From Mustelus asterias (taxonomy: Eukaryota), in contig NW_027590338.1 of assembly GCF_964213995.1 (NCBI RefSeq), forward strand, positions 124,001-188,000: a stretch of DNA of 64,000 bases. The letters run 5' to 3'. The translations under genes and the position numbers were made by a program. The notes beneath the pieces were generated by a model. It did not search any database and was not told the origin of the DNA. It saw only the letters and a list, made by a program, of their open reading frames with translations. Numbering within the stretch: the stretch's first letter is position 1; every line of letters begins with the position of its first letter. Of the stretch, positions 421-63,240 are shown piece after piece.

Positions 421-1044
421 TTAAATAGACTGTCTGGCAGCCTGCATGGAGATTTTCAGCTCTCTGTGTCCAGTGAGCATGGATCTGTCAATCAGCACTT
501 TCAAGAGAATATGGAGGGTGAATATTAGATACAGCAGAGTGAGAATGGAGGGAGAGTGTGTGGGATGGAGATTTACAGCTTTTGGGGAATGGAAGAGGAA
601 AGAATGTTCCATTGAAACTAGAATTGTCTGTTCTGAATTTCTATCCTGTATTGACTGTGATGACTTTTGTAAACTCCTTTTACAGGATATCAGAAGTTGA
701 GGATTTACAGACAGAAATCTCAGACCAAACATCACGTCAACATCTGACAGAGTCACTCAATTCATCGGGACCTGAATATCATCGGCCTTTGAATCTAGAA
801 GGAGAAATGTTTCTCTGTTCTGTCTGCTTCAGGAGATTTTAAACATCAGTGTGACTGGAAAGCACTGAGACATACACACCCGAGTGAGAGTGTTCCAGTG
901 CACTGCGTGTGGAAAATGCTTCAGTTGCACAGCCTGAAAAAACATCGCAGCATTCACAGCGGGGAGAGACTGTACCCATGTTCTGTGTGTGGATGAGGTT
1001 TCAACTGATTGTCCGACCTGGAGAGTCACAAGGACACCTGCACC

Positions 1045-1719
1045 ATGGAAAAACGGTGGAAATGTGGGGACTGTGGGAAGGGATTTAGATACCCTTCTCA
1101 CCTGGAAACTCATCGACGCAGCCACACTGGGGAGAGACCGTTCACCTGTTCTCAGTGTGGGAATGGATTCAGTCAATTATCCGCCCTGCAGACACACCAG
1201 AGAGTTCACAATGAGGAAAGGCCATTCATCTGCTTTCATTGTGGGAAGAGATTCACTCAGTCATCCGCCCTGCAGACACACCAGCGAGTTCACAATGAGG
1301 AGAGACCATTCATCTGCTCTCAGTGTGGGAAGGGATTCAGTCAGTCATCCAGCCTGCAGAGACACCAGCGAGTTCACACTAGGGAGAGGCCGTTTACCTG
1401 CTCTCAGTGTGGGAATGGGTTCACTCAGTTATCCACCCTGCAGACACACCAGCGAGTTCACACTCAGGAGAGGCCGTTTATCTGCTCTCAGTGTGGGAAT
1501 GGGTTCACTCAGTTATCCCATCTGAAGACACACCAACGGTTTCACACTGGGGAGAGGCCGTTCACCTGCCCTCAGTGCGAGAAGGGATTTGCTCAGTTAT
1601 CCACTCTGCAAACACACCAGCGAATTCACACTAAGGAGAGACCGTTCACCTGCTCTCAGTGTGGGAAAGGATTCACTCAGTTATCCAATCTGCGGAGACA
1701 CCAGCGAGTTCACATGTGA
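1045..1719 (+). CDS. C2H2 zinc-finger protein, 8 fingers, no recognisable effector domain (ZNF-1)
   Basis: Eight CxxC-x12-HxxxH units with TGERP-like linkers. First ATG is at 1045 in caccATGg Kozak context; the ORF track start at 1009 is a TTG. Upstream intron 518-685 (GT..AG). Confidence 0.88.
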
Positions 1720-1999
1720 TTCCAGGGATTGAATTCTGCTGTTATTGTTTCTGCTCTCAATCACATCCAGGACTGCATTTTGTTCATTCTCACAGTTGGT
1801 CAATGGTGAGGGTCGGAGGGTTTCTTTCTGCTGGACTGGCCGGTCTCACCACTTTGCCTCCAGTGGGCTGATAATCTTTTAACCTTGTTGCGAATATCTG
1901 GCTTTGGATTTCTCAAGGATCACAGAGTGAAAGAGCGTTAGGAAGTTAAAAGATATTTTGTTCACAATTATGTTTGGAAGCCTCGCAAAGCACGCAGAG

Positions 2000-2330
2000 G
2001 GAGTAGTGAGCATGAGGAACTGAAAGAGATTAGTATTCGTGAAAAAGTAGCACTGGAGAAATTAATGGGGTTGGAAGTGAATAAATCCCCAAAAAGCTGC
2101 TGATCTACATCCCAGAGTGTTGGAAGAGGTGGCTGTGGAGATAGTGGATACATTGGTGGTCATCTTTCCAAATTCTATAGATTGTGGAATGGTTGCTGCA
2201 GATTGGAAGGTGGTAAATGTAACCCCACTGTTTAAGGAGGGAGAGAGAAAACGGGGAACCACAGACCCATCAGCCTGACATCAGCCGGAGGGAAAATGCT
2301 ACAATCTATTGTACAGGATGTGATAACAGA
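2000..2330 (+). mobile_element. CR1 ORF2 internal fragment (degraded)
   Basis: Remnants of KSP..LHPRVL.EVA..VP.DWKV.NVTPLFK.G. Confidence 0.75.
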
Positions 2331-2444
2331 TGAATATGCACATTCAGAATAGGGGTACGTCCCTCGAGCCTGCTCCACCATTCAATACATACACAGCTGA
2401 TCTGATTGTAACCTCAACTTCACATTCCCACCGACCCCCCCAAT

Positions 2445-2760
2445 GAGCTTCAGACTAAAACTCCCTCCTCTGGGCAACATCTGGAAGAAATCAATGTTTC
2501 CCCCTTTCCATTTCTTTTCTCATTCTGGGGGGAATTGGGGACTTGCAGCAACTGAAGGGAAAGGAAGTGAATCCAGGGAGGCTGCAGACTCTGGAAAGGT
2601 TGGCCCAGGTCTCTCTCTCTTAAAGATATTGACATCCTTTGCTCCCTCAGCTTGACACATTTATTTGTCTGGCTAAAAGGATGGTCTCTTTCCGAATGTT
2701 AACAATTAAAGGGTTGTTTCCCCAGGAAATGGCTGACATTTCAGGGGACAATGTAGTCAG
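2445..2760 (+). other. ZNF leader module (exon-1 end, short intron, 50-nt exon 2), copy
   Basis: Matches 63120-63430, 3000-3260 and reverse 13915-14080. Confidence 0.7.
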
Positions 2761-2994
2761 GTAGGTGATGTCTCTGTTATGACTCGTGTTACATTTACAT
2801 ACTCTATATTTATGATTTTCTGGTACAGTAGGTTTATTATATTTCTAATCTTGCAGTATACTACTCGTCCTGCACCTGAATGCAGGGCTGCCAGATGAGG
2901 GAGTGGTGGATGGAACTTTGCAAAATGTATTCTGTTTATTTTCTTACAAGTCAATACATTTTAATTTTTAACATCACAGGTTTTGTTTTTATCT

Positions 2995-3270
2995 TCACAC
3001 AGGCCAAAACCTCCTCCTGTCTCCAACACCTGTGAGTAAAACACCTTATTTTTCTCCCCCTTTCCATTTCTTTTCTCATTCTGGAGGAAATTGGGGACTT
3101 GCAGCAACTGAAGGGAAAGGAAGTGAATCCAGGGAGGCTGCAGACTCTGGAAAGGTTGGCCCAGGTCTCTCTCTCTCTCTCTTAAAGACATTGACATAAT
3201 TTCCTCTCTCAGCTTGACACATGTATTTGTCAGGCTAAAAGGATGGTCTCTTTTCTAATGTTCACGGGCT
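2995..3270 (+). other. ZNF leader module, second tandem copy upstream of ZNF-2
   Basis: ct|GTGAGT donor, pyrimidine tract, ttgcag acceptor, aag|GTTGGC donor. Confidence 0.7.
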
Positions 3271-4144
3271 GGTTTCCCCAGGAGATAGAAACCTGCTCGA
3301 CCATCCATTATGATCATGGCCGATCATCCCTCCCAATATCCCTTCAGCGCCGAGAACTCTATCTAATTTCTTCTTGAAATCACACAATGTCTTGGCTTCA
3401 GCTACTTTCTGTGGGAGTGAATTCCACACATTCACCATTCTCTGGGTGAAGAAATTTCTCACTTCAGTCCTGAAAGGTTGACCCCTTATCCTCAACTCCC
3501 CCACCGTCAGGAACATCGAGAGATGGCTGACATTTAAGGGGACAGTAAATATAGGACAGACATCTGTCTAATGTTGTTACATGGTGCATAATTGGTTCTG
3601 TAACAAAATACATTTATTATTTCTAGTTTTGTAATATAGTACTTCAGCGACATTATATATTTCCATTATACATTCACAGCACAGGTGTCCATTCAGTAAC
3701 TCGAGTCCATGCCGACTTTCTGTCGGACAATACAGTCAGTCCCACTACCCCTCTATAGCCCTGTTCCCCTGCAAGTTTATTTCCTTCAGATGCCCAACCC
3801 AATTTATTTTAAATTATTCTTCTCCACTTCCACACTGGTGTGATTTTCTGATTATACCCACTCGCTGTCTAAATAATGTTCTTCCTCACACATCCCCTAC
3901 TCTACCTCAAATTAAAAGATACAGCACTCTCGATCAAACATTTTCTGGACAGCTAATTGTGCATCTGGCGAGATATATGTACATTTACTGAATTAAAATG
4001 TTTGGGTGTCTGACTCCAGGACCTTGTATCGATAGATCAACATGACTCACTGATTCAGGAGAATTGGGAGGGTGAATGTTAGACACATCAGAGTGAGAAT
4101 GGAGGGACAGTGTGTGGGACGGAGATTTACAGCTTTTGGGATTT

Positions 4145-4629: not shown

Positions 4630-5168
4630 ATGGAGAAACCTTGGGAATGTGGGAAGGGATTCGTTACCCCATCAAGACTGGAAAGTCACCGACGCGTTCA
4701 CACTGGGGAAAGGCCATTTACTTGCCCTGATTGTGGGAAGGGAGTCACTCAGTTATCCCACCTGTGGACACACCAGTGAATTCACACTGGGGAGAGGCCT
4801 TTTATCTGCACTGAATGTGGGAAGGGATTCACTCAGTCATCTAACCTGCTCGGACACCAGCGAGTTCACACTGGAGAGAGGCCATTCACCTGCACTGAGT
4901 GTGAAAAGGGATTCAGAGATTCATCCACTCTGCAGAAACACCAGAGAGTTCACACTGGGGAAAGACCATTCACTTGCTTTGATTATGGGAAGCAATTCCA
5001 AGATTCCTCCACCCAGGTGAGACACCATCAATTTTATACGGGGAGAGGCCGCTCACCTGCTCTGACTGTGGGAAGGGATTCACTCAGTTATCCACCCTGC
5101 AGACACACCAGCGAGTTCACAATTGCTTACATGAGGTGGATTCTTCTGTTAATCACATCCAGGACTGA
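4630..5168 (+). pseudogene. C2H2 ZNF pseudogene (ZNF-2)
   Basis: MEKPWECGKGF start; in-frame TGA at 4777-4779 (CGA>TGA in HQR); later frameshifts; exon acceptor lost to the SINE. Confidence 0.82.
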
Positions 5169-10820: not shown

Positions 10821-11163
10821 AGTTTCAAACAGAAATAGTGACGAAATATCTCTGAACTTCCTCACACCCTGTCACTCTGTGATCCTTGTGAAATTTAAAA
10901 CCAGGTATTCGCAACAAGACTCAAAGAGCATCAGTCCACTGGAAGTAAAGTTGTGAGACCGGCCAGTCCAGCAGAAAGAAACCCTCCGACCCTCCCCATT
11001 GACCAACTGTGAGAATGAACAAAATGCAGTCCTGGATGTAATTGAGAGCAGAAACAACAACAGCAGAATCAAACCCCTGGAATCACTCGTGAACTTGTTG
11101 GTGTCTCAGCAGGTGGGATAAAAGACTGAATCTCTTCTCACACACAGAGCAGGTGAATGGCCT

Positions 11164-11757
11164 CTACCCAATGTGAATTCGCTGGTGTGTCAGCAGGTTG
11201 GATGAATCACAGAATCCCTTCCCACATTGAGAGCAGTTGAATGGTCTCTCCCCGGTGTGAACTCGTTGGTGTTTCCGCAGGTTGGAAGACTGAGTGAATC
11301 TCTTCCCACACTGAGAGCAGGTGAACGGCCTCTCCCCGGTGTGAACTCGCTGGTGTTTCCGCAGGTTGGAAGACTGAGTGAATCTCTTCCCACACTGAGA
11401 GCAGGTGAACGGCCTCTCCCCAGTATGAATGCGCTCATGGACCGGCAGGTCGGAAGATCGACTGAATCCCTCCCCACACTGAGAACACGTGAATGGCCTC
11501 TCCCCAGTGTGAACTCGCTGGTGTCTCTGCAGGCTGGATGACTGAGTGAATCCCTTCCCACACTGAGAGCAGATGAACGGCCTCTGCCCAGTGTGAACTC
11601 GCTGGTGTTTCTGCAGGCCGGATGAGTAGGTGAATCCCTTCCCACACTGAGAGCAGGTGAATGGTCTCTTCCCAGTGTGGCTGCGCCGATGAGCTTCCAG
11701 CAGAGATGGGGATCTGTATCTCTTCTCACAGTCCGCACATTTCCATGGTTTCTCCAT
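11164..11757 (-). CDS. C2H2 zinc-finger protein, 7 fingers; an eighth finger lies behind a premature TAG (ZNF-3)
   Basis: MEKPWKC start; GAG>TAG in the linker at 11164-11166; a further finger runs to ~11085, followed by the conserved tail. Confidence 0.8.
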
Positions 11758-13436
11758 GGTGCAGGTGTCCTTGCCTCTCCCTTGGGTGACCAATCAGTTG
11801 AAGCCTTGTCCACACACACAACACGGGTACCGTCTCTCCCTGCTGTGAATGGTGTGATATTTATTCAGGCTGTGTAACTGGTTAAAGCTCTTTAGTCAGT
11901 GCACTGGAACACTCTCACTCGAGTGTGGCAGTGTGTCGCTGCTTTTCCAGTCACACTGACATTTGAAATCTTTTCAAATCAACAGACCGGATAATCATTT
12001 CTTCTTCTAGATTCAAAGTCCGATGATATTCAGCTCCCAAGGAATATGACTCTGTCAGATCTAGATGTGACGTTTGAGATTTCAGCCTGTGATTCCTCTT
12101 TCAATATCCTGTAAAACGAGTTTACAAAAGTCATCAGTGTCAGTACAGGATAGAAATTCAGAACAGACAATTCTAGTTTCTATGGAACATTCTTTCCTAT
12201 TTCAGTCCCAAAAAGCTGTAAATCTCCATCCCACACACTCTCCCTCCATTCTCACTCTGCTGTATCTAATATTCACCCTCCCAATTCTCCTGAAGGTGCT
12301 GATTGAGGCTGATTGACAGATCCATGCTCACTGCTTCCTGTCCTGGACACAGAGACCATAACAAATAGGAGCTGCAGTCGGCCATTTGGTCCATCGAGCC
12401 TTTTAAACTATTCAATGAGATAATTCGTTCATCTACCTCAGCATCATTCTCCCCACACTAAACCCATATCCCTTGATATCCTCAATATCTAGAAACCAAT
12501 CAATCTCTCTCTCGAAAATAGTTGATGACTGAGGCTTCACTGTCCTCAGGGGTTGAGAATTCCAAAGCTTCACCACATCCTTGAGTGAAGAAATCCCCCC
12601 ACATCTTAGCTTTTGCTCCATCTTCTTCTCTGTTCCCCATAACCCTTGACACCCTTGTCAGTCAAAGATCTGTCTAACTGGAATATATTCAATGATCCTC
12701 AGCCTCCACTGGTCCCTGTGGAAGAGAAATCCAAAAGACTAACAACCCTCTGAGGGAAGAGATGTCTGGAAATATATAACGTAGCTACAGTTCCATATTA
12801 CAAGATATTCAGATCCCAAGGAATATGACTCTTTCTAGATGTGACAGTTGAGATTTCTGCCTGTGATTCCTCGTTCAAAATCCTGTGAAATGAGTTTGCA
12901 AAAGTCATCACAGTCAGTATAGGATAGAAATTCAGAGCAGACAATTCTAGTTTCTATGGAATGTTATTTCCTATTTCATTCCCAAAATGTTGTAACTCTC
13001 CATCCATATCTATGGATTCTATTTAAAAATGAAAGTGGATGGGCACTTGAAGGAAATAAACTTTCAGGAGAATGGGGATATAGAGTGGGAATGGGACTGG
13101 AATGTTATACAGAGAGTCAGCATGGACTTGAGTTACCGAATGGATTCCTTCTGTGCTGTAATGACTTTATGACTGGAAATGTATAACATCGCTGCAGCAT
13201 TATATTATAATGCAAGAAATAATAATAAATGTATTTTACTACAGAAACATAAATAATATATCTAATCTGGGTACCTTATAATAACACTAGACATATCTCT
13301 GTCCTATATTAATTTACTGTCCCCTTAAATGTCAGCCATCTCCTGGGGAAAGCTGCCCTTTAATGTGAACATTAGGAAAAAGACCATCCTTTTAGACAGA
13401 CAAATAAATGTGTCAAGCTGAGGGAGCAAAGGATGT

Positions 13437-14001: not shown

Positions 14002-14142
14002 CTGCAAGTCCCCAATTTCCCCCAGAATGAGAAAAGAAATGGAAAGGGGGAGAAAAGAAAGTGTTTTACTCACAGATGTTGGCCTCTTTAAAGGAATGCA
14101 GTGCCAATTTGCAGATAGCACAGAAAGCCAGCAAAGGGGCCC

Positions 14143-14195
14143 TGCCGAAACCCGGGATTGAACCAGGGACCTTTAGATCTTCAGTCTCACACTCT
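14143..14195 (-). pseudogene. 5'-truncated tRNA-Phe(GAA) gene fragment
   Basis: Reverse complement agagtgtgagactGAAgatctaaaggtccctggttcaatcccgggtttcggca matches the 3' ~53 nt of vertebrate tRNA-Phe. The 5' acceptor strand and most of the D arm are missing; the B box is retained. Confidence 0.9.
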
Positions 14196-14259
14196 TAATT
14201 GCTTGCACTTAATTGAAACAGGAGGAAGTTTGAATCTGCCTGAAGCTCAATCTTCAATC

Positions 14260-14640
14260 ACACAAGGCCCGCGCTCTGCTTGGCTGGAGGACCAGAATCC
14301 TTCCGGTCCTCCAACTCTTCCCATTGGCCAGAGCTGGTGAGGGGCAGTGAATCAAAAGTGCGCATGTGTGGGTTTTTAGGAGGAATGCGCATGTGCGGGT
14401 GTGGGGGGGGCCCGGGACAAAGCCGGCGCACTGACCATTGTCTGTCCGGGTCTTCCAACCTTTTCCAATGGACAACAGCTCAGCGCGGCTGGAGGGCAAA
14501 GTCCCGCCCACCCCCACGAGGGGCTCCGCCCCTCATTGTCTGTCTGCAGGGGATTGACCAATGGGAACTCTGGAGGACCGGAAGGACTCTGGTTCAGCTG
14601 CTCATTCCTGCACAGCAAAGCTGCTGCTGCTCTCTGTCTG
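14260..14640. promoter_or_regulatory. CpG-rich bidirectional promoter between ZNF-3 (-) and ZNF-4 (+)
   Basis: Two TGCGCATGTG (NRF1-like) motifs, several CCAAT/ATTGG, CCCGCCC and CCGCCCC GC boxes; inverted symmetric halves. Confidence 0.7.
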
Positions 14641-14692
14641 AATGAAGATTGAGCTTTCGACAGACTCAAGGAAGTGAAAAGAATCAGCCAAT

Positions 14693-14803
14693 GCCAACGG
14701 CAATACCAGACTGAAAACGCCTGACCTCGGAAGCTAAGCAGACTCAGGCCTGTTTAGTACTTGAATAGGAGACCTCCTGGGAATACTAGGTGTAGTAGAC
14801 TTT
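14693..14803 (+). pseudogene. 5S rRNA gene copy with ~10-nt internal deletion
   Basis: gccaacggcaataccagactgaaaacgcctga-cctcggaagctaagcagactcaggcctgtttagtacttgaataggagacctcctgggaatactaggtgtagtagacttt aligns end to end with vertebrate 5S, lacking ~TCTCGTCTGA. Confidence 0.9.
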
Positions 14804-15129: not shown

Positions 15130-16110
15130 GAAGTGAATCCAGAGAGGGTGCAGACTCTGGAAAGGTTGGCCCAGGTCTCTCTCCCTCTCTTAAAGACATT
15201 GACGTTCTTTGCTCCCTCAGCTTGACACATTGATTTGCTTGGTTAAGAGGATGTTCTCTTTCCTAATGTTCAGAATTAAAGGGCTGCTTTCCCCAGGAGA
15301 TGGCTGACATTTAAGGGGACAGTAAATTAATATAGGACAGAGATATATCTTGTGATTTTTTTTGTCACAGATTAGATAAATTATTTATGGTTCTGCAATG
15401 AAGTAATTTATTCTTATTTATATTCTTGTAATATTGTTCTGTACCTCTGTTATATACTTCCAGTTATGGAGTCATTACAGCAAAGGGGTCCTTTCAGCCA
15501 CACACGTCCATCCTGACTCTTGGTCAAAGTGAAGCAGTGAACATGGATCTGTCAATCAGCCTCAATCAGCACCTTCAGGAGAATTGGGAGGGTGAGTATT
15601 AGATACAGCAGAGTGAGAATGGAGGGAGAGTGTGTGGGATGGAGATTCACAGGAATGAGAGAGGAAAGAATGTTCCATAGAAACTAGAATTGTCTGTTCT
15701 GAATTTCTATCCTGTACTGACACTGATGCATTTTGTAAACTCCTTTTACAGGATATCTGAAGGTGATGATTTGCAGGCAGAAATATCAAACCAAATGTCA
15801 CACTAAGATCTCACAAATTCACTCTATTTATCGGAACCTGAATATCATCAGTCTTTCAATTTAGAAGGATAAATATTTGTCTGTTCTGTCTTTTTCAGGA
15901 GATCTTCAATATCAGTGTGCCTGGAAAAGCACTGAAACACACACACACCTGAGTGAGCGTGTTCCAGTGCACGGACTGTGGAAAGAGCTTTAACACAGTC
16001 TGAAAAAACATTGCATCATTCACATCAGGGAGAGAAATTAATTGTGTTCTGTGTGTGCACGAGGCTTCAGCAGATCGTGAAACCAGCAGAGTCACAAGGA
16101 CACCTGCACC

Positions 16111-16785
16111 ATGGAGAAACGGTGGAAATGTGGGGACTGTGGGAAGGGATTCAATTACCCATCAAAGCTGGAAACTCATCGACGCAGTCACACTGGGGAG
16201 AGACCATTCACCTGCTCTCAGTATGGGAAGGGATTTAGTCAATTCTCCCTTCTGCTTACACACCAGCGAGTTCACACTGGGGAGAGGCCGTTCACCTGTT
16301 CGGAGTGTGGGAAGGGATTCAGCGATTTACCCACACTGCGGAGACACCAGCGAGTTCACACTGGGGAGAGACCATTCACCTGCCCTGTTTGTGGAAATGT
16401 TTTCAGCAATTCATCCACACTACTGACACACCAGTGAGTTCACACTGGAGACAGACCGTTCAATTGCTCTGACTGTGGAAAGGGATTCATTCGGTCATCC
16501 CACTTGCTGACACACCAGCGGGTCCACATAGGGGAAAAGCCATTCACCTGCTCTGAGTGTGGGAGAGGATTCAGTGATTCATCAAACCTGCTGACACACC
16601 AGCGAGTTCACACTGAGAAGAAGCCATTCAACTGCTCTGTGTGTGGAAGGGGATTCAAACATTCAGCAACCGTGATGAAACGCCAGCGAGTTCACACCAG
16701 GGAGAGGCCGTTCACCTGCTCCATGTGTGGGAAGGGATTCACATTGTTCTGCAACTTGCAGAGACACCAGCGAGTTCACAAATGA
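16111..16785 (+). pseudogene. C2H2 ZNF, 8 finger units, interrupted by in-frame TGA (ZNF-4)
   Basis: TGA at 16435-16437 (CGA>TGA); finger 2 has C>Y and finger 7 has H>R; the frame is otherwise continuous. Confidence 0.8.
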
Positions 16786-21300: not shown

Positions 21301-22640
21301 CCCCCTGAAGAGCCGTAACAAATTTCCCTCCTAGGAAATTGGTGCCCCTCTGGTTCAGGTGCACCCCGTCCTGTTTGTACAGGTCTCACCTTCCCCAGAA
21401 TGTGTTCCAATTATCCACGTATCTGAAACCCTCCCTCCTACACCATCCCTGCAACCACATGTTTAACTGCACTCTCTCCCTGTTCCTCAACTAGCTATCA
21501 CGTGGCACCGGCAATGTACCAGAGATGACCACATGTTTTGTCTTGGCTCTCAGCTTCCAGCCCAGCTCCAGAAATTCCTGCTTTAAATCCCCATCCCTTC
21601 TCTTACCTATGTCATTGGTACCAATGTGCACCACGACTTGTGACTGTTTCCCCTCCCCCTTCAGAATCCGGAAAACACGGTCTGAGACGTCACGGACCTT
21701 GGCATCCGGTAGGCAACATACCATCCGTGAGTCTCTTTTGCTGCCACAGAACCTCCTATCTATCCCTCTAACTAACGAGTCCCCAATAACCATTGCACTC
21801 CCGCTCTGCCCCTTACCCTCCCGAGCCACAGAGACGGACACAGTGCTTGAGATCCTCTCACTGCGGCTCACCACTGGTATGTCATCCCCCTCAACCGTAT
21901 CCAAAGCGGAATACTTGTTGCTAAGGGGAACGGCCACCGGGGATCCCTGCATGGACTGCTTCCTCCCAGCCCCTCTCACCATCACCCATCTGTTTTCATT
22001 CCTTGGAGTAACTGTATTCCTAAAGCTTCTGTCTATGGCCAAATCTGTGTCCCTGATGATCCTAAGTTCATCCAACTCCAGCTCCAGTTCCCTAACACGG
22101 TTTTGGAGGAGCTGCAGATGGGTGCACTTCCCACAGATGTAATCAGCAGGGACACTGTCGTCGTCCCTCACCTCAAACATAGTGCAAGAGGAACATTGAA
22201 CTGCCTGCACACCCATCCCCTCCAGCTACCTTGCCAGTACCAGGTAGAAAGTGCAAAAAAGAATTAAACTCACCCCTGCTCGCCCTTTCTGCCTAAGCCC
22301 TGTGAGCCAAAGCCTTATAGCTCACACTCTGCTTCCCACTCACTCAAGCCCTGTGAGCCAAAGCCTTATAGCTCACACTCTGCTTCCCACTCACTCCACT
22401 GCCCGCTCCCGACGCTGCCCGCTGTATACTGCAGCCTACCTTTTATACTTCACACGCTTAAAAAACCCTTCCCAGACTCCTTAGCAGCCCACTTCCAATT
22501 TTCACTTTAAACTTAACATACTACTGCAAAAGTAAAGGCCAAAAAAAACACACACTAGCTGACTAATTAAATAAATAAACAATTCAATTAATCTCTCACC
22601 AGCACTGCTGCCTCCAATCACTCCCTCTGAGCTTGCTCCA
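18325..22640 (-). mobile_element. Near full-length CR1 LINE (ORF1 zinc finger/leucine zipper + SGNH esterase; ORF2 APE endonuclease + RT), few inactivating lesions
   Basis: ORF1 21491-22216: CSSC..CGKC, GDSLVRG, VHIGTND. ORF2: NARS, ITETW, GDFN, SDH, GVPQGSVLGP, FADD. Stops at ~21491 and ~20973; frameshifts near 19640 and 18640. Confidence 0.95.
22295..22396. repeat. Exact 51-bp tandem duplication in the CR1 5' UTR
   Basis: aagccctgtgagccaaagccttatagctcacactctgcttcccactcactc x2. Confidence 0.92.
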
Positions 22641-26010: not shown

Positions 26011-26479
26011 TCTATTTGTGATCTCCATTTAGAAAAAGGAAATAGAGGCACTGGAGAAGGGTCAAGAAAGATTCACAAGAATAATCCCAGAACTGTAATC
26101 ACTTGTGAACTCACTGGTGTTTCACCAAGTTTGCTGACTGAGTGAATCCCTTCCCAGTCAGAGCAGGTGACCAGCCTCTGCCTGGTGTGAACTCACTGGT
26201 GGGACATTAGTTCCCGAGAGCTTTTGAAGCCACGCCCACATTTAAAGGGTCTCTCCTGGGTGTGATGATGTTGTGTCTGAGCAGGCTGGATAACTGAGTA
26301 AATCCTTTCGCACACACCAAGCAGGTGAATGGTTTCTCCCCGGTGTGAACTCACTGGTGTTTCAGCAGTGTTGATGATATTCTAAACCTCCTTGAACAGC
26401 GAGAGCAGCTGAACGGCCTCTCCCCGGTGTGAATGTGCTCGGGGATCATCAGTTCCTGAGAGCTTCTGAAGCCGGCCTC

Positions 26480-27685
26480 TCAGGCAGAGCATTTAAAGGG
26501 GCTCTCCTTGGAGTGAGTGGCTTTGTGTCTCAGCAAGCTGGATGAAGCAGTGAATCCCTTCCCACACACAGAGCAGGTGAATGGTCTCTCCCCGGTGTGA
26601 ACTCGCTGGTGTATCCGCAGGTTGGATGACGTTTTAAACCTCTTTGAGCAGTGAGAGCAGCTGAACGGTCTGTCCTCAGTGTGAATGCGCTGGTGGGACA
26701 CCAGATCCTGAGAGCTTCTGAATCCGCTCCCACAGTCAGAGCATTTAAACGGTCTCTCATTGGTGTGAGTGAGATTGTGTGTGCGCAGGTGGAATGACTG
26801 AATGAATCCCTTCCCACACACCGAGCAGGTGAATGGCCTTTCCCCAGTGTGAACTCGCTGGTGTATCCGCAGGTGGTATGATGTTCTAAATCTCTTTGTG
26901 CAGTGAGAGCAGCTGAACGGTCTCTCTTCAGTGTGAATGCGCTGGTGGGATACCAGTTCTCCAGAGCTTTTGAAACCTCCCCCACAGTCAGAGCAGTTAA
27001 AGGGTCTCTCCTGGATGTGAGTAATTTTGTGTTTCAGCAGGGTGGATAATTGAGTGAATCCCTTCCCACACACAGAGCAGGTGAATGGCCTCTCCCCAGT
27101 GTGAACTCGCTCGTGTGTCTGCAGGTTGGATGAAGTTCTAAACCTCTTTGTGCAGTGAGAGCAGCTGAACGGTCTCTCCTCAGTGTGAATGCGCTGGTGG
27201 GACACGAGATCCTGAGAGCTTTTGAATCCGCTCCCACAGTCAGAGCATTTAAACGGTCTCTCATTGCTGTGAGTGACTCGGTGTGTCTTCAGGGTGGATG
27301 ACTGAGTGAATCCCTTCCCACACACAGAGCAGGGGAACGGCCTTTCCCCAGTGTGAACTCGCTGGTGTCTCCGCAGGTGGTATGATGTTCTAAACCTCTT
27401 TGAGCAGTGAGAGCAGCTGAACGGTCTCTCCTCACTGTGAATGCGCTGGTGGGACACGAGATCCTGAGAGCGTTTGAATCTGCTCCCACAGTCAGAACAT
27501 TTAAAAGGTCTCTCCTGGGTATGAGTGACCTTGTGTTTCTGCAGGCTGCCTAAATGAATGAATCCCTTCCCACACACAGAGCAGGTGAATGGTCTCTCCC
27601 CAGTATGACTGCGTTGATGAATTTCCAGCTCAGATGGGGCTCTGTATCTCTTCCCACAGTCCCCACATTTGCACGGTTTCTCCAT
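26480..27685 (-). CDS. C2H2 zinc-finger protein, 14 fingers with 3-finger periodicity (ZNF-5)
   Basis: MEKPCKC start; FTCSVC/FKCSDC/FSCSHC triplets; decayed fingers continue to ~26100 after the stop. Confidence 0.88.
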
Positions 27686-28988
27686 GGTGTGGGTGTCCTT
27701 GTGACTCTGCAGGTTAAACAATCAGTTAAATCTCACACAGAACGTGGGTACAGTCTCTCCCCGCTGTGAATGCTGTGATGTATTTTCAGGCTGTGTAACT
27801 GGTTAAAGCTCTTTCCACACTCAGTGCACTGGAACACTCTCACTCGGGTGTGTGTATCTCAGTGCATTCCTAGTCACAGTGATGTTTACAATCTTTTGAA
27901 GCCAAGAGGCCAAACAAACATTTCTCCTGCTAGGTTCAAAGGCCGATGATATTCAGGTCCCAAGAAATCGAGTCACTCTGTCAGATCTCGATGTGATGTT
28001 GGAGATTTCTGTCTGATTTCTCCTTGTCTAATATCCTGTAAGTCAATTTAGAAAAAAAACATCGCAATTCAGAATACGATCGAAATTCAAATCTACATTT
28101 CTAGTTTCTATGGAGCATTCATTAAAGACACAGTCATGGAGCATTAAACTTGCCGAGCAGGTCCTCCCGTATCAGCACACAGGCAGCTGCTTTGTGAGAC
28201 TGCCAGCAGTACGGACAAGTCAGAGATAAGGGTGTCCTCAGAAGTGGGATTCATTGTGAAAGCTCAGGGATGGTTGATAAGATGTAAGAACTCGATGATT
28301 CTAATGAACGTTCTTTCCTCTCCCATTCCCCAAAAGCTGTGAATCTCCATCCCACACACTCTCCCTCCATTCTCACTCTGCTGTATCTAATATTCACCCT
28401 CCCAATTCTCCTGAAGGTGCTGATTGAGGCTGATGGACAGATCCATGCTCACTGCTTCCACTCCAGCACAGAAATCAGAACAAATAGGAGCTGCAGTCAG
28501 CATTCGGCCCATCGAGTCTGCTCAACCATTCATTGAGATTATTGGTTGATCTACCTCTGCATTATTTTCCCCACACTGTCCCCCATATCCATCAATATCT
28601 TCAATATCTAGAAACCTATCAATCCCTCTCTTGAAAATTCTTGATGACTGAGGCTCTATAGTCCTCTGGGGTAGAGAATCCAAAACATCACCACATCCTT
28701 GAGTGAAGAAATCCTTCCTCATTTAAGCTTTCTCTCCATTTTCCAGCCTGTTCCCAATAATTATTGACTCCCTTGTCATTCAAAAACTGTCTAACTCATC
28801 CTTGAATATATTCAATCCCTCCACTGGTCCCTATGGAAGAGAAATCTAGATACTAACAATTCTCTGAGGGAAGAGATTGTTGGAAATATATAATATAGCT
28901 GCAGTCCAAAATTACACAGCCAGATATAATAAGTGTATTTTATTACAGAGCTATAAATAATATATCTAATCTGTACCATATAACAACA

Positions 28989-35252: not shown

Positions 35253-35740
35253 CACAGAGAATCAAATGGGTTTGAGAAAACGAATGTATTCCTTCAGTGC
35301 CGTGATGACTCTGATTGAAAGATACAGCGTAGCTACATTTATTATGATCCTAATCTAGTAAATAAGAAATGCACTGCATTAGGAAATGATAAAAAGGTCA
35401 AACGGGTAACTGAAATGTCTCCTCACAGTCTCTAGATTTCCACGGTTTCTCCCGAATGTGACTGTAGTTGTGAATGGTGCTGTTTCCTTCCGTGTTCAAA
35501 GCTCCCTGCTTTTCAATTTACTATAAATTGTGCAGCTCCATCCAATGCTGATTTGATGTTTTGTGTGAGATTCCTGACCCCAGATCCTCCCTTTATAAGA
35601 CCAATTATATTAACATCTATAACAGAGCTGGAGTTTTTTTTCAATTCAGCAGAAACAGGCCGAAATGAACATGATTCAATCTGAATATTAACAGGAAAAT
35701 TCCAACCACAATAGTTCCTTGTGAATTCGCTGGTGTCTCA

Positions 35741-36995
<1,255 letters not shown>

Positions 36996-37841
36996 GTTCA
37001 AAATGCAATGATATTCAGGTTACAATAAATTGGCCGCCTCCATCAGATTCTGATATGATGTTTGGTTTCAGTTTCCAAACTCCAAATCCTTTTCTAAAAC
37101 CCTGTGAAATTGATTTAAAACGGAAAAAAGGGAGTGAGAGAGAACCCACAAAAAGACAAAGGTAGCTTGTGAAATTGAGCTGAATGAATCTGGGAATTTG
37201 TGGGGCCGGCATTGCTGGCTTGTCATAAAAATCCAACCGGTTCCCCAATGTTCTCAAGGAATGAAACCTGCCACCCAGTCTGGATCTACACAAGACTGTG
37301 GACACTGTGGGAGGAGACAAAGAGAAATAGGAGAGAGCCGGGGTGAAGGAGAGGGATTTTATACATCTACAACTCAACAAGAACTTTGACAGAATCTCCC
37401 AAACCCTCAACCTCCATGACCAAGGACCAGGGTAGTAGGTTAGAAAGGAACCCCATCAACTCCAAGTTCCCCTACAACTTACACATCATGCTGACTTGTC
37501 TGAAATCCTGTACTAAAAGAACATGAACTTTTTTTTATATAACTACTGGGAAGACTGAACCCATTGTGTTCAGTCCCCACTGCAAATTCCACTCCCTCGC
37601 CAGCAACTCTATCCCTCCTCCTGGCAACTGAAAGAGGCAGATCCAGGCTGTTCACAACTGTAGTGAAATATATCACCCCAGGTTGAGCTTCCAACCACAT
37701 ATTCAGATCATCATCAAGGCTGCCTACTTCCATGGAGACAGAGTTTCATGGTGAGAGAGGGAAAGTTTCAAGGAGATGTGAATGAGGAAGTTTTTCATGC
37801 AGAGAGTGGTGGGTGTCTGGAAGGCGCTACTAAAGGAGGTC

Positions 37842-41740: not shown

Positions 41741-42785
41741 GTGATTTTAGCTGCCTGGAGGAGGTTGTTTAGTGTTGAAAGCCAGATGGGAGTGTGTTAT
41801 AATAACTTGGTTTAGAGGTAACAAAGGAATGGATGATTTTGCAGTGGATAAACTGAGGCTAATGTATAATTGGGTGATGTCACGGAGATGAAAATAGGTG
41901 ATTTTGGTGCTGATGTGGATGAGTTTGGAAGATCATCTTGGGTTGAAATATTTCACCATGGTTGTGAACAGTCTGCTTCAGACTCAGACATTTGGCAGGG
42001 ACAGGGATGGAGTTGATGGCGAGAGACTGAAGGAAATGGGCTCAGTCTTGTCATTATTTAAATGGAGGACATTTCCGCTAATTCAATCTTGGATGTCAGA
42101 CAAGTTCAGATGGTGTGTAGCTCGAAGGGGAACTTGCAGATGATGGTGTCCAAATACTCCTGCTGCCCTAGTCCATCCAGGTGGTGGAGGTTGAGGGCAT
42201 AGAAGGTTCTGTCAAATTGTTCTGTCTATAAAATATCTCCCATTTGCCCCCATCTCTCCCACCTTCTCTCTCTGTCACTCTCACTACTTTCTGATTTTCT
42301 CTCTCTTGCTGTCTCTCTTGTGAGATAGATTTCTGTTACCCAGAGGGTTCCATCATTGACTATATTTAATGCTGAGACGATAAGATGTGGCTGAATGGCA
42401 GAGCAGCCTCGACAGGCCGAATGGCCTACCCCTGCTCCTATTTCTTGTGTTCTTGCAGAGGCCAGAGCCTTGGGTAGACTCAGACCGGGTGGCAGGCTTT
42501 CTTCACTGAAGGATATTCGTGACCATTTCAGTTCTGACAAAAGATTGAACAAATTTCATGGTCACTTTTTCCGAGTGCCGGCCCCACAAATGACCAGATA
42601 CATTCAATTCAATTTCACAACCTGCCTTTGTGAGTCTTTCTCATCGCCTTTTTTCTGTTTAAAATCAATTTCACAGATTATCTGAAGCGGAGGATTTCCA
42701 ATCAGAAAACTCAAACCAAACATCCCATCAGGATCAGATGGAGTCACCCAATTTATTGTCAGCTGAATATTTGTGAATTTTGAAC

Positions 42786-43895
42786 ATGGAAGGAAAAGGC
42801 ACTGTTCACAGTGGGGAGAAACAGTGGGAATGTGGGGAGGGATTCAGATCCCCACCCGAACTGGAAACTCATTGGCCCAGACACACCGGGGAGAGGTCAT
42901 TCACTTGCTCCAAGTGTGGGAAGGGATTCTCTCGCTCATCCAGCCTGCTGCAACACCAGCGAGTTCACACTGGAGAGAGACCTTTCAATTGTTCCAACTG
43001 TGGGAAGGGATTCGCTCAGTCAGGCAACCTGCTGAGACACCAGCGAGTTCACACTGGGAAGAGACCATTCACTTGCTCAGAGTGTGGGAAAGGATTCGCT
43101 CGGTCCTCTGACTTGATGGCGCACCAGCGAGTTCACACTGACGAGAGACCATTTAAATGTCCAGACTGTGGGAAGTGCTATAAAAGTTCCCGGGACCTGA
43201 TACTCCATCAACGTGCTCACAGTGACGAGAGGCCATTCAGATGCTCTCATTGTGGGACTGGGTTCAAACAATCATCTCAACTCACTGAGCACCAGCATAC
43301 TCACACCGGGGAGAGGCCATTCACCTGCTCTGTGTGTGGGAATGGGTTCAGTCGGGCATCTAACCTGCGGATACACCAGCGAATTCACACTGGGGAGAAA
43401 CCTTTCACCTGTTCTGAGTGTGGGAAGGGATTCACTCAATTATCCACTCTGTTGAATCACCAGAGTGTTCACAATGAGAAGAGACCATTTCAATGTCCAG
43501 ACTGCAGGAAGTGCTACAAAAGTTCCCGGCAACTGCTCCACCATCAACGAGTTCACACTGAGGAGAGACCTTTTAACTGCCCAGACTGTGAGAAATGCTT
43601 TAAAAGTTCTGGGGAACTGATGCGCCATCGTGTTCACACTGACGAGAAACCATTCAGGTGCTCTCACTGTGACACTGGGTTCAAGACATCATCTGACCTC
43701 ACTGCACATCAGCGAGTTCACACTGGGGAGCGACCATTCACCTGCTCCCAGTGTGGGAAGGGATTCACTCAGTCATCCTCCCTGCTGACACACCAGCGAG
43801 TTCACACCAGGGAAAGGCCGTTCACCTGCCCCAAGTGTGGGAAGAGATTCACTCAGTCATCCAACCTGCTGAGACACCAGCGAATTCACAAATAA
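42786..43895 (+). CDS. C2H2 zinc-finger protein, 12 fingers plus one degenerate (ZNF-7)
   Basis: [12 protein letters not shown] start; one finger has a 1-codon deletion (LMRHRVH). Confidence 0.88.
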
Positions 43896-48706: not shown

Positions 48707-49768
48707 TCAGTCCTGGATGTGATTGACAGCAGCAATAACAGCAGAATCCAATTCCTCCAGACACTTGCCAATTTGTTGGTGTGTTAGAAGATGGGTTGAC
48801 TGAGTGAATCCCATCTCACACTCAGAGAAGGTGAACGGTCTCTCTCCATTGTGAGTGTGTTGGTGTCTCAGCAGGTGGGATGAGTGAGAAAATCCCATTC
48901 TGCACTCAGAGCAAGTGAACGGTTTCTCCCCGGTGTGAATGTGCTGGTGTGTTCGCAGGTTGGATGAGCGAGTGAATCCCTTTCCACAGTCAGAGCAGGT
49001 GAACGGTCTCTCCCCAGTGTGAACTTGTTGGTGTCTCAGCAGAACACTTGAGGTCTTAAAGCTCTTCTCACATTCAGAACATCTGAAAGGTTTCTTATCT
49101 GAGTGAACAAGTTGGTGTGATCTGAGGCTGGTTAAATAAATGAATCCTTTTCCACACAAGGAGCAGGTGAACGACCTCTCCCCAGTGTGAACTCGCTGGT
49201 GTTTCTGGAGGCTGGATAACAGAGTGAATCCCTTCCCACACACTGTACATCTGAATGGCCTCTCCTCATTGTGAACTCGCTGGTGTATCAGCAGATCACT
49301 TGTGGTTTTATAACTCTTCTCACATTCGGAACATTTGAAAGGTCTGTTATCAGTGTGAACCAGTCGGTGTGTAGCGAGGTGGGATGATCGTGTGAATCCC
49401 TTCCCACACACAGAGCAGGTGAACGGCCTTTCCCCAGTATGAGTGCGTTTGTGTTCAATGAGATTCTGTGATCGCTTAAATAACTTCCCACAGTAAGAGC
49501 AGCAGAACTGTTTCTCGGTGTGAATAGATTGGTGCGTGACCAGGTCCTCAGGGCTTTTAGAGCTGTGATCACCGTCAGCATGGTTAAAAAGCCTCTCTTC
49601 AATGTGAACTTGCTGGTGGGTCAGCAGGTGGGATGACTGAATGAATCCCTTCCCACACATGGAGCAGGTGAATGGTCTCTCCCCAGTGTGACTGCGCCGA
49701 TGCATTTCCAGCAGAGATGGGTAACTGAATCCCTTCCCACAGTCCCCACATTTCCATGGTTTCTCCAT
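48707..49768 (-). CDS. C2H2 zinc-finger protein, 10 intact + 2 degenerate fingers, C-terminal LDSAVIAAVNHIQD tail (ZNF-8)
   Basis: ATG-initiated 353-aa ORF starting MEKPWKC. Confidence 0.88.
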   Translation of the reverse strand: MEKPWKCGDCGKGFSYPSLLEMHRRSHTGERPFTCSMCGKGFIQSSHLLTHQQVHIEERLFNHADGDHSSKSPEDLVTHQSIHTEKQFCCSYCGKLFKRSQNLIEHKRTHTGERPFTCSVCGKGFTRSSHLATHRLVHTDNRPFKCSECEKSYKTTSDLLIHQRVHNEERPFRCTVCGKGFTLLSSLQKHQRVHTGERSFTCSLCGKGFIYLTSLRSHQLVHSDKKPFRCSECEKSFKTSSVLLRHQQVHTGERPFTCSDCGKGFTRSSNLRTHQHIHTGEKPFTCSECRMGFSHSSHLLRHQHTHNGERPFTFSECEMGFTQSTHLLTHQQIGKCLEELDSAVIAAVNHIQD

Positions 49769-51236
49769 GGTGCAGGTGTTCTTGTCTGTTCAAGCCTTGT
49801 CCACACACAACATGTGTATTGCTTCTAAGTAAGGCTATTAAGGGTTATGGGACAAGGCAGAAAATTGGATTGTCATATCATATCAGCCGTGATCTCATTG
49901 AATGGAGGAGCAGACTCGATGAGTCCAATGGCCTAATTCTGATCCTAATTCTTATGATCTTATTGTTCTCTGCTGTGAATGGTGTGATGTTTCTTTCAGG
50001 CTGTGTAACTGGTTAAAGCTCTTTCCAGTCAGTTCACTCTCACTCAGGTGTATGTCTCGGCGCTTTTCCAGTCACACTGATGTTTGAAATTGTTCCCCAC
50101 CGCCAGAACAGACAAACATTTCTCCTTCCACATTTAAAGGTCGATGATATTCAGGTTCTGATGAATTGAGTGACTCTGTCAGCTCTTGATGTGATGTTTG
50201 GTTTCAGTTTCCCATCTGCAATTCATCGTCCTTGTGGACCTTGTAAAAGACATTGACAGAGTCAGTATCGCTGTCAGCACAGGATAGAAATTCAGAACAA
50301 ACAATTCTAGTTTCCATGGAATATTATTTCAAATCTTGTTTCCCCAAATCTTGTGGTCCAATCGAACTTCCATCTGAACTAAACCAGAACTTTGTTTCCA
50401 GTGTTTGTGAGACACTCTGTACCCTGAGTTGCGGAAGATATCGAGTGTTCCAGTCGACACTGTCTGCTCCCTCTCCAGGACCACACGAGCATGGACAAGA
50501 AAGTTAAAGTTTACTTTTATTAGTCACAAGTAAGGCTTGCAGTAACACTGTAATGAAGTTACTGTGAAACCACAGAAGAACCACAGCCAAGTTACCCTCT
50601 GCTGAACTACAAATTACTGTTTTAACCAGCCCCAAGAACAGGTCCAGGAAAAGATCCTCTGACCTCCCCAGTCTCCTCCACACTGGGCAGTCAACGAACA
50701 GGAGCGTGGGGCAGAACAGAATTGTAACTAAAAGTGGAGAAGCAGCTCCTTCAGGGGTTGCAATCTCTCACACTGAATATGTACATGGCTCATGGATTTC
50801 TCAAGGCTGCAAATTAATTTAAAGAGGAGAAAAAACAGTGATAAACACAAAGGCAGGTTGTGAAATTGAGCTGAATGAATCCGGTAATTTGTGGAGCCGG
50901 CACAAGGAAGAAGTGACTCCGGAAGCTGCTGGATTGTGATTAAAAACCCAAATGGTTTGTTAATGTCCTTCAATGCAGGAAACCTGCCACCCAGTCCAGA
51001 TCTACACAAGAATTCAGCCTCAATGGGAGGAGAAAGATAAAGATGAAACAGGGAGGGAATGAATGGTAAGGACTTTATACATCTACAACTGGACAAGAAC
51101 TTTGACAGAACCTGCCAAACCACAGCCTTCACCAACTCAAAGGATGCAGGAAAACTATCACCTCAAAATGTCATTTTCAATCTCAAATCTCAAAACAACT
51201 TGTAATCCTGAGATAACTGTATCCTCCTGCGTTTAA

Positions 51237-58491: not shown

Positions 58492-59016
58492 GTGAATATT
58501 AGATACAGCAGAGTGAGAATGGAGGGAGAGTGTGTGGGATGGAGATTTACAGCTTTTGGGGAAAGAGAGAGGAAAGAATGTTCCATAGAAACTAGAATTG
58601 TCTGCTCTGAATTTCTATCCTGTACTGACACTGATGACTTTTGTAAACACCTTTTACAGGCTATCAGAAGGTGAGGGTTTACAGACAGAAATCTCAAACC
58701 AAACATCACGTCAACATCTGACAGAGTCACTCAATTCATCGGGACCTGAATATCATCGGCCTTTGAATCTAGAAGGAGAAATGTTTCTCTGCTCTGTCTG
58801 CTTCAGGAGATTTTAAACATCAGTGTGACTGGAAAGCACTGAGACATACACACCCGGGTGAGAGTGTTCCAGTGCACTGTGTGGAAAACACTTCAGTTGC
58901 ACAGCCTGAAAAAACATCGCAGCATTCACAGCGGGGAGAGACTGTACCCGTGTTCTGTGTGTGGATGAGGTTTCAACTGATTGTCCGACCTGGAGAGTCA
59001 CAAGGACACCTGCACC

Positions 59017-59607
59017 ATGGAGAAACGGTGGAAATGTGGGGACTGTGGGAAGGGATTTAGATACCCTTCTCACCTGGAAACCCATCGACGCAGCCACACT
59101 GGGGAGAGACCGTTCACCTGTTCTCAGTGTGGGAATGGATTCAGTCGATTATCCACTCTGCAGACACACCAGCGAGTTCACAATGAGGAAAGGCCATTCA
59201 TCTGCTTTCATTGTGGGAAGAGATTCACTCAGTCATCCGCCCTGCAGACACACCAGCGAGTTCACAATGAGGAGCGACCATTCATCTGCTCTCAGTGTGG
59301 GAAGGGATTCAGTCAGTCATCCAGCCTGCGGACACACCAGCGAGTTCACACTAGGGAGAGGCCGTTTATCTGCTCTCAGTGTGGGAATGGGTTCACTCAG
59401 TTATCCCATCTGAAGACACACCAACGGTTTCACACTGGGGAGAGGCCGTTCACCTGCCCTCAGTGCGAGAAGGGATTTGCTCAGTTATCCACTCTTCAGA
59501 CACACCAGCGAGTTCACACCAAGGAGAGACCGTTCACCTGCTCTCAGTGTGGGAAAGGATTCACTCAGTTATCCAACCTGCGGAGACACCAGCGAGTTCA
59601 CATGTGA
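59017..59607 (+). CDS. C2H2 zinc-finger protein, 7 fingers (ZNF-9; paralog of ZNF-1)
   Basis: Same as ZNF-1 minus finger 5. Confidence 0.88.
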
Positions 59608-61785: not shown

Positions 61786-62238
61786 CCCGCATTGAGAGCA
61801 CATGAATGTCATCTCCCCAGAATGAACTCGCTGGTGTATCTGCAGGCTGGATGCCTGAATGAATCCCTTCCCACACTGAGAGCAGGTGAACGGCCTCTCC
61901 CCAATGTGAACTCGCTGGTGTGTCTGCAGGTCAGATGACCGAGTGAATCTCTTCCCACACTGAGAGCAGGTGAATGGCCTCTCTCCAGTGTGAGTTCGCT
62001 GGTGTCTCTGCAAGGTGGATGACACAGTGAATCCCTTCCCACACTGAGAGCAGGTGAACGGTCTCTCCCCAGTGTGAACTCGCTGGTGTGACTGCAGGTG
62101 GGAAAAACAAATGAATCCCTCCCCACACTGAGAGCAGATGAATGGCCTCTCCCCAGTGTGGCTGCTTCGATGAGCATCCAGCAGAGATGGGGCACTGTAT
62201 CTCTTTCCACAGTCTACACATTTCCATGGTTTCTCCAT
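61606..62238 (-). CDS. 3'-truncated C2H2 ZNF, 5 fingers, reading into antisense CR1 (ZNF-10; paralog of ZNF-3)
   Basis: The sixth finger is cut at FMCSQCG (~61786); the ORF continues ~59 codons in CR1 antisense. Confidence 0.6.
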
Positions 62239-62879
62239 GGTGCAGGTGTCCTTGCCTCTCTCTTGGGTGGCCAATCAATTGAAGCCTCGTCCACACACAC
62301 AACACGAGTGCAGTCTCTCCCCGCTGTGAATGATGTGATATTTATTCAGGCTGTGTAATTGGTTAAAGCTCTTTAGCCAGTGCACTGGAACACTCTTACT
62401 CAAGTGTGGCAGTGTGTTGATGCTTTTCCAGTTACACTGATGTTTGAAATGTTTTCAAATCAACAGACTGGACAACAATTTCTCCTTCTCGATTCAATGG
62501 CCGATGATATTCAGCTCCCAAGGAATATGACTCTGTCACGTCTCGACGTGACGTTTGAGATTTCAGCCTGTGATTTCTCTTTCAATATCCTGTAAAACAA
62601 GTTGACACAAGTCATCAGTGTCAGTACAGGATAGAAATTCAGAACAGACAATTCTAGTTTCTATGGAACATTCTTTCCTCTCTCATTCCCCAAAAGCTGT
62701 GAATCTCCATCCCACACACTCTCCCTCCATTCTCACTCTGCTGTATCTAATATTCACCCTCCCAATTCTCCTGAAGGTGCTGATTGAGGCTGATTGACAG
62801 ATCCATGCTCACTGCTTCCTGTCCTGGACACAGCTGAAAATCTCCAAGCAGGCTGCCAGACAGATATATGCCCATATGT

Positions 62880-63130
62880 CTGCACCCTGGGCCCGGCACT
62901 GCGCATGTCCAATGGAGAGGGGAAGATGCGCATGTGCGGGGGGAGCCAACCTGTTGACCTGCTGCTTGAGGTGTTGGCCAATGGAAAGCTGGAGGACCGG
63001 ACGTTCTCTGGTCCTCAAGCCAATCAGAGCTCCCCCATTGTCTGAATGCGGAAGTTGGACAATGAGCTTGTTCAGCTGCTCATTCCTGCCCAGCAAAGCT
63101 GCTGCTGCTCTGTCTCTGAATGAAGATTGA
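62880..63130. promoter_or_regulatory. CpG promoter paralogous to 14340-14650
   Basis: Two TGCGCATGT motifs, several CCAAT, GGAGGACC..GGTCCTC dyad. Confidence 0.65.
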
Positions 63131-63240
63131 GTACAGACAGACTCAAACGTCTTCTGTCTCCAACATCTGTGAGTAAAATACTTTCTTTTTTCCCCCTTTC
63201 CATTTCTTTTCTCATTCTGGGGGAAACTGGGGACTTGCAG

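Follow-up and report, generated by a model that had tools for sequence, protein, structure and literature searches.

Elasmobranch C2H2 zinc finger genes with a fossil 5' leader and a probable start codon in a former finger linker

The stretch of Mustelus asterias DNA analysed here, 64 kb in length and called the window below, is a tandem cluster of ten C2H2 zinc finger genes with CR1-type retroelements lying between the arrays. The reading that we regard as probable is that these genes belong to an old elasmobranch ZNF family, in which a fossil leader serves as 5' UTR, translation starts at an ATG inside a former linker, and the products are finger-only DNA-binding proteins with a conserved cap finger.

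Results

Organization of the genes

The genes were named Z1 to Z10 in order of position, and their exon limits are predicted (Table 1). Krüppel-type features are present (repeated Cx2Cx12Hx3H fingers and TGEKP-type linkers), and the paralogs are clustered, each array lying on a single predicted exon. Eight genes are of type 1 and two of type 2. Stops or frameshifts were found in the arrays of five of the ten genes (Z2, Z3, Z4, Z5 and Z6), and Z10 is truncated besides.

Several neighboring features were also detected. Finger units in the Z5 array (26480-27685, minus strand) recur in threes (CSVC, CSDC, CSHC), pointing to triplet duplication. The plus-strand region 63040-64000 holds a first exon (donor near 63169) followed by intron 1, both belonging to an eleventh member that is divergently oriented and leaves the window, and 63306-64000 is 92% identical to 29157-29856. 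Upstream of Z8, the region 50700-51800 (minus strand) is a remnant of a further type-2 gene, with an intron homologous to that of Z6 (50843-51121) and a finger fragment (51662-51722). A nearly full-length CR1-like element occupies 18435-22225 (minus strand), its ORF1, endonuclease and RT frames being interrupted by a small number of lesions, and a GC-rich stretch at 38807-39874 (plus strand) holds an open frame of 355 aa with a weak zf-RVT match, in which a LINE other than CR1, for example Tx1/L1, probably ends.

Table 1. Positions, strands and characteristics of the features in the window
Feature	Position	Strand	Remarks
Z1 exon 2, non-coding or uORF exon	441..517 (5' edge uncertain)	+	Upstream ATG near 478 in strong context; donor AGG/GTGAAT after 517; splicing predicted
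Exon-2 copies	Ends 12277 (-), 15591 (+), 28398 (-), 58491 (+), 62758 (-)
Intron 2, 168 nt	518..685	+	Cassette with exon 2; ~95% identity between paralogs
Exon 2 + intron 2 cassette	471-685 (+); 12333-12109 (-); 15535-15751 (+); 58434-58659 (+); 62815-62590 (-)
Fossil acidic/Ser-rich spacer, start of last exon, now probably 5' UTR	686..806	+	dN/dS 0.83; frames differ between shark gene models
Three vestigial finger units	807..1044	+	Shared stops 852 and 1006; frameshifts lineage-specific
Putative start codon caccATGg at G position of former linker	1045..1047	+	Selection steps up here
WKC finger and linker with family signature	1045..1146	+
Z1 ORF	1045..1719	+	Type 1, 224 aa, 8 C2H2 fingers, without other domain
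Z2	4630..5125	+	Type 1, ATG 4630, decayed: stop after 49 aa, frameshift
Z3 last exon	11085..12108	-	Type 1, ATG 11757, 197 aa
Z4 last exon	15752..16782	+	Type 1, ATG 16111, stop after 108 aa
Z5 last exon	26090..28035	-	Type 1, ATG 27685, 401 aa, then decayed fingers
Z6 last exon	35716..37101	-	Type 2, ATG 36995 at spacer end; finger -1 coding
Z7 last exon	42677..43895	+	Type 2, ATG 42786; finger -1 and part of WKC finger deleted
Z8 last exon	48707..50240	-	Type 1, ATG 49768; leader repeat insert ~49820-49960
Z9 last exon	58660..59607	+	Type 1, ATG 59017; recent Z1 duplicate
Z10 last exon	61786..62589	-	Type 1, ATG 62238; CR1 copy cuts array after 5 fingers
Putative bidirectional promoter of Z3/Z4	14230..14670	.	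CCAAT and TGCGCATG-type motifs; Z3 first-exon donor ~14073
Putative bidirectional promoter	62900..63170	.	Directly upstream of Z10 exon 2

Type-1 last exons begin with a disrupted leader

The last exon of the eight type-1 genes begins with about 350 nt of former coding sequence, consisting of a spacer of about 120 nt, three finger-length units (fingers -3, -2 and -1) and then HKDTCT-M-EK. The conserved acceptor that the initial annotation placed before this leader was recovered (TTTTACAG/G at 685/686 in Z1, with the ATG at 1045), as were the stops it quoted, at 1006, 11796, 27724, 58978 and 62277. A stop is found in finger -1 of five of the eight genes and in finger -3 of six of the seven genes that keep this region. 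These stops had been described as recurring; they occupy the same aligned codons and are thus shared rather than independent. In finger -1 the aligned codon is TGA in Z1, Z3, Z5, Z9 and Z10, AGA with a stop two codons later in Z4, and TGG in Z2. Single inheritance would most simply explain the shared stops, though a change from CGA to TGA can recur. Of the three fingers formerly called dead, fingers -3 and -1 carry shared stops, whereas finger -2 has none and is intact in Z5 (27766-27828); finger -2 is stranded, not itself dead.

In its ancestral frame the leader has a dN/dS of 0.72 (NG86, all pairs of six leaders; shifted-frame controls 1.03 and 0.69), and the values in three disjoint-pair sets are 0.73-0.88 (NG86, P-value = 0.14-0.54). 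Seven leaders contain 50 disruptions in 780 codons (21 frameshifts and 29 stops, many of them shared and hence not independent), while ten arrays contain 12 in 2800 codons (5 frameshifts and 7 stops, of which 10 lie in the distal quarter), so that the load of stops and frameshifts is about 15 times as high in the leader. The dN/dS of 0.72-0.88 and the excess of disruptions support the earlier proposal that the type-1 leader is non-coding, and suggest nearly neutral evolution. The repeat within the Z8 leader, also cited in favor of that proposal, is an insert of about 140 nt; its other copies lie at CR1 ends and adjoin RT ORFs, from which the label CR1 is taken.

Two other explanations of the leader were rejected: stop readthrough is ruled out by the frameshifts, and CpG decay does not account for the leader diverging more than the intron, because the gap stays after removal of CpG columns (0.196 vs. 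0.047). A possible alternative acceptor with 17 of 20 pyrimidines was noticed around 811-833 (plus strand), inside dead finger -3 and 214 nt before the ATG, with equivalents in Z4 and Z9; its use would shorten the UTR and not restore coding.

Selection steps up at the linker ATG

Within the five-residue linker that follows finger -1, the ATG stands at the second position, and the linkers downstream are mostly TGERP or TGEKP. Its placement at the G position of a TGEKP linker in the context caccATGg, as initially annotated, was confirmed in seven of the eight type-1 genes, Z2 having ccccATGg. The ATG is kept in all eight copies, and the 15-18 nt before it are nearly invariant (divergence 0.09 at 1024-1053). 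Across three disjoint-pair sets, the dN/dS of the ATG plus finger 1 is 0.33, 0.45 and 0.61 (NG86, P-value = 0.015, 0.042 and 0.32, one of the three not significant), and from the ATG through finger 2 it is 0.38, 0.44 and 0.60 (P-value = 0.0007, 0.002 and 0.07). Between Z1 and Z9 the ORF shows 5.5 nonsynonymous and 9.5 synonymous differences (dN/dS 0.15, P-value = 2e-4, Fisher test). These values support purifying selection on the ORF from the linker ATG (dN/dS 0.15-0.61), and the comparison proposed in the initial annotation, of leader (0.72-0.88) with finger ORFs, thus gives finger ORFs that are not neutral. Together with the disruption counts, it indicates that selection starts approximately at the ATG and acted after the leader broke; this order follows because the paralogs share the stops.

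Could most type-1 copies instead be untranslated relics, whose apparent selection came through gene conversion or recent descent from a few working genes, for instance of type 2? Z2, Z3, Z4, Z5, Z6 and Z10 each have premature stops, frameshifts or a truncation, which would agree with this, as would non-ATG start codons in several homologs and the signs of homogenisation in the 5' cassette described below. We nevertheless consider it decidedly unlikely, given the dN/dS of the young duplicates Z1 and Z9, the retention of the ATG in every type-1 copy despite the decay of the leader, and the distal clustering of array disruptions; the working genes would be finger-only even so.

Homologs and age of the leader

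A profile of the spacer obtained six matches, of which the four with a named source are all from sharks, and a search with fingers 1-2 obtained 22 matches, of which 14 are from sharks or a skate. The finger -3 stop is the exact end point of two models from the sawshark Pristiophorus, and the finger -1 stop is that of one model from the white shark Carcharodon. Pristiophorus is a squalomorph and Carcharodon a galeomorph, lineages that split about 250 My ago. Both stops are present in the window, so at least one of them would predate this split. The leader is retained at 73% protein-level identity. With the low mutation rate of the epaulette shark, 7e-10 per generation (PMC10587355), neutral decay would, as a rough estimate, be slow, and this retention needs no function.

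The elasmobranch models at NCBI named 'zinc finger protein 239-like', 'XlCGF-like' or 'uncharacterized' belong to the same family, having the spacer, both start types and the WKC finger in common with the window genes. These names are automatic, and many of the models differ in carrying unrelated N-terminal extensions. The spacer is read in another frame in P0008, P0022, P0027 and part of P0005, which is expected of a UTR, while P0007, P0019 and P0011 start at homologous ATGs. Six homologs have no Met at the start position, namely P0009, P0014 and P0015 of type 1 (T or V) and P0016, P0010 and P0018 of type 2 (T, V or I). In P0010 an open spacer runs in frame into the fingers as a 95-aa extension of no known family. 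These homologs weigh against the proposed reading; they may be genuine exceptions, or pseudogenes on which a gene model was forced. Two individual models are peculiar: in P0001 from Pristiophorus a histone H2A is fused to the spacer, suggesting that ZNF and histone genes are interspersed there, and the N-terminus of P0009 is a read-through of a promoter similar to window 52360-52587. Judging by this family, many of the N-terminal extensions annotated in shark ZNFs would be artefacts.

In the alignment, the type-2 ATG falls where the type-1 spacer ends. A second start type in Z6 and Z7, following loss of the leader fingers, had been proposed; the type is real, but the loss is incomplete, as Z6 codes finger -1. 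This finger is also intact in P0005, P0007, P0010 and P0019, and the WKC finger is therefore the second finger in all five. Trees built from the spacer and from finger 1 gave little resolution (a single starred branch in each) and did not separate the order of origin of the two types.

Upstream exons and the search for an N-terminal domain

The initial annotation described a 76-nt upstream exon splicing in frame to the spacer and took it as a sign of a longer ancestral N-terminus. Its GSSEH frame does meet the spacer in Z3, Z4, Z5, Z9 and Z10, but not in Z1 (10-nt deletion), and the 76-nt boundary is found only in Z9 and Z10, being altered in Z1. Exon 2 is absent from Z6-Z8, and the Z5 copy carries an insertion and is more diverged toward its 3' end. 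The GSSEH frame has no ATG within exon 2 and runs into the leader stops. In another frame a strong ATG opens uORFs of 14-53 codons that end 246-361 nt before the main ATG; in Z1 and Z9, where a CR1 copy lies directly upstream of exon 2, out-of-frame uORFs overlap the start. Neither frame was found attached to fingers among database proteins, the uORF frame obtaining no matches and the other a single unnamed 94-aa match ending at the exon end; these are weak negatives. Exon 2 was accordingly rejected as a coding exon, and the lack of an in-frame ATG and of database fingers attached to either frame leaves the longer N-terminus unsupported.

Exon 2 and intron 2 form a cassette about four times more conserved between paralogs than the leader, with star-like distances. 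Among Z3, Z4 and Z9, 13 of 215 non-CpG columns differ in the cassette, compared with 85 of 305 for the leader and 37 of 155 for the 3' UTR, the change being abrupt at the acceptor. Where the intron measures 160-168 nt, as it does in five copies, every pair differs by 0.04-0.07, and the Z1-Z9 cassette distance (9/168) matches that of the flanks (22/418 and 31/720). Such a pattern looks more like homogenisation by gene conversion than constraint on a functional element. RNA structure was rejected as a cause of the conservation (z-scores -0.34 and +0.43; none of 67 predicted pairs compensatory; no Rfam matches there).

Pfam was run on all 212 sense-strand stop-free segments that are at least 38 codons long and precede the ATGs, except segments of which more than half was TE coding sequence; the region upstream of Z1 lies outside the window. 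No KRAB, SCAN, BTB or ZAD domain was detected in these 212 segments, in a scan blind to domains not yet described, to exons of fewer than 38 codons and to exons in TE-masked sequence. Its matches were confined to two remnants of fingers and a DUF1877 below threshold. Effector domains are listed for none of the 14 elasmobranch homologs. Among the best 25 families per protein, five window ORFs and five homologs matched only zinc-finger-type or cross-matching small families, or none. The N-terminus free of effector domains that the initial annotation described thus stands for these segments and homologs.

Promoter-like elements rich in CpG, CCAAT and TGCGCA were found around 14.2-14.7, 32.2-32.7, 52.3-52.7 and 62.9-63.1 kb; their motifs are presumably NRF1 and YY1 sites. 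Exon 2 of Z10 lies about 100 nt from one of these elements, which would leave no room for an effector exon. Near the Z3/Z4 element, a 5S rRNA-like sequence (14693-14801, plus strand; Rfam 59.8 bits), either a pseudogene or the front part of a SINE derived from 5S, lies within or just past the putative Z4 first exon, and a tRNA-like fragment was seen by eye in the Z3 first exon around 14140-14195, where ARAGORN and Rfam made no call.

A hidden upstream exon coding for a shark counterpart of KRAB or FiNZ might still join in frame through an alternative acceptor just before the ATG, in which case the proteins would not be effector-less. The near invariance of the 15-18 nt before the ATG and the open spacer of P0010 fit this, and standard annotation missed the FiNZ exons in zebrafish (PMC10547256). 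Yet with splicing at the main acceptor, or at the pyrimidine-rich AG inside the leader at -214, translation still runs into the finger -1 stop. Four of six genes have their best internal AG before this stop; in the other two, Z3 and Z10, it lies downstream and has 12 of 20 pyrimidines against 14-15 at the true acceptor. With the short distance from the promoter-like element to exon 2 in Z10, and the spacer as the only N-terminal sequence seen in common among database models, we judge such a hidden exon very improbable. FiNZ genes and the KRAB-like genes of actinopterygians have a conserved acidic N-terminal coding exon of about 28 aa; exon 2 of the window genes is not acidic, its frames are absent from finger-bearing database proteins, and stops block read-through.

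A family signature in the WKC finger

The first finger was compared as a set of 21 WKC fingers, 8 from the window (excluding Z2 and Z7, where the finger is partly deleted) and 13 from the database (excluding P0016, where it is non-canonical), with 91 later fingers; the database fingers were retrieved with finger 1 as query and are thus a biased set. W precedes the first Cys in 17 of 21 WKC fingers and in none of the 91 later ones, D stands between the Cys residues in 19 (12 of 91 later), P at +1 in 19 (3 of 91), E at +5 in 20 (0 of 91), S before the last His in 20 (0 of 91), and a hydrophobic residue at -1 in 15 (10 of 91). The window fingers by themselves have W in six, P and E in seven each, and S in all eight. 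Helix positions +1, +5 and +8/+9 face away from the bases, and the WKC finger is variable at -1, +3 and +6. The atypical first finger noted initially is therefore a signature conserved across sharks and a skate in which base-contact positions vary. Overall, finger 1 (dN/dS 0.41) is under no extra constraint relative to finger 2 (0.46). A docking face and a stabilising cap would fit this signature equally well, and the support for docking is indirect. A PDB search with finger 1 returned only generic multi-finger proteins.

At the base-contact positions of the arrays dN/dS is 1.45-1.59, compared with 0.03-0.10 at structural positions (non-independent pairs, no formal test). Change at base contacts together with canonical linkers is the pattern of DNA-binding arrays, and would favor DNA binding here. 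That the proteins act mainly on RNA, or as passive competitors without partners, finger 1 being conserved for folding only, appears unlikely: no effector was found and the signature residues could be structural (W as part of the hydrophobic core, P as the residue starting the helix), but TGERP and TGEKP linkers dominate, change is concentrated at base contacts, and no result points to RNA or specifically to steric competition.

Discussion

The history that we favor would begin with an ancestor whose last exon coded the spacer together with additional fingers at the N-terminus. Stops in the founder of type 1 would have killed this front part, and the linker ATG before the WKC finger would have become the start; in type 2, where fingers -3 and -2 are missing, the ATG at the spacer end would be used. 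Duplication then spread the fossil as probable 5' UTR, as the shared lesions and neutral evolution show. The main ATG is most likely reached by reinitiation after the exon-2 uORF or by leaky scanning past it. The products would be finger-only proteins of up to 14 fingers with canonical linkers, binding DNA with fast-diversifying specificity. Their targets are plausibly repeats, by analogy with KRAB- and FiNZ-ZNFs. The splicing pattern, initiation mode, DNA binding and repeat targets are all deduced from sequence.

The cluster resembles the KRAB-ZNF clusters of sarcopterygians in tandem arrangement, short upstream exons, one last exon with spacer and array, birth-and-death evolution and variable contact residues. 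It differs in that no KRAB exon was detected, the spacer itself is probably non-coding, and the effector-less state seems family-wide. In mammals effector domains were repeatedly lost by degeneration (PMC2443715), and in cartilaginous fishes KRAB-box families are reported to be absent (PMC8455134). A lineage-specific expansion without canonical KRAB is also shared with the FiNZ-ZNFs of cyprinids and KRAB-like ZNFs in ray-finned fishes, whose expansions are tied to retroelement control (PMC10547256, PMC11603059). Those families, compared here through their descriptions, have a conserved coding N-terminal exon, whereas none was seen in the shark cluster.

Wells et al. (PMC10547256) list 475-3586 ZNF ORFs in eight chondrichthyan rows, with roughly 700-3600 multi-finger ORFs per genome in seven rows for sharks and rays, and the strings 'shark' and 'chondrichth' do not occur in its main text. 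The shark family is likewise not described in the accessible parts of PMC11603059, PMC10380595, PMC2667407 and PMC13047888. ZNF expansion and KRAB absence in sharks are thus already known; of the fossil leader, the linker start and the finger-1 signature we found no description, for the leader and signature mainly in openly readable literature.

C2H2 fingers serve as protein-contact modules in FOG, at the C-terminus of Ikaros and in the CWCH2 fingers of Zic and Gli. No specific similarity of the WKC finger to these was seen, its W preceding the first Cys and not lying between the Cys residues. We read this finger as a cap conserved throughout the family, which would serve either for structure or for binding a partner in place of an effector domain; the latter role is speculative and rather unlikely. 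The fuller proposal, that elasmobranchs enlarged their ZNF repertoire after dropping the N-terminal extension, a repurposed WKC finger being a shared cofactor dock and a third solution beside KRAB and FiNZ, and that the uORF/intron cassette co-regulates dosage, we think unlikely to be right.

Sharks and rays have many multi-finger ORFs and lack KRAB-box families. For them the present family offers a defined start, a datable fossil UTR and one conserved finger as a candidate effector. If finger 1 is only structural, the family would be an ordinary class of genes that has evolved in an unusual way.
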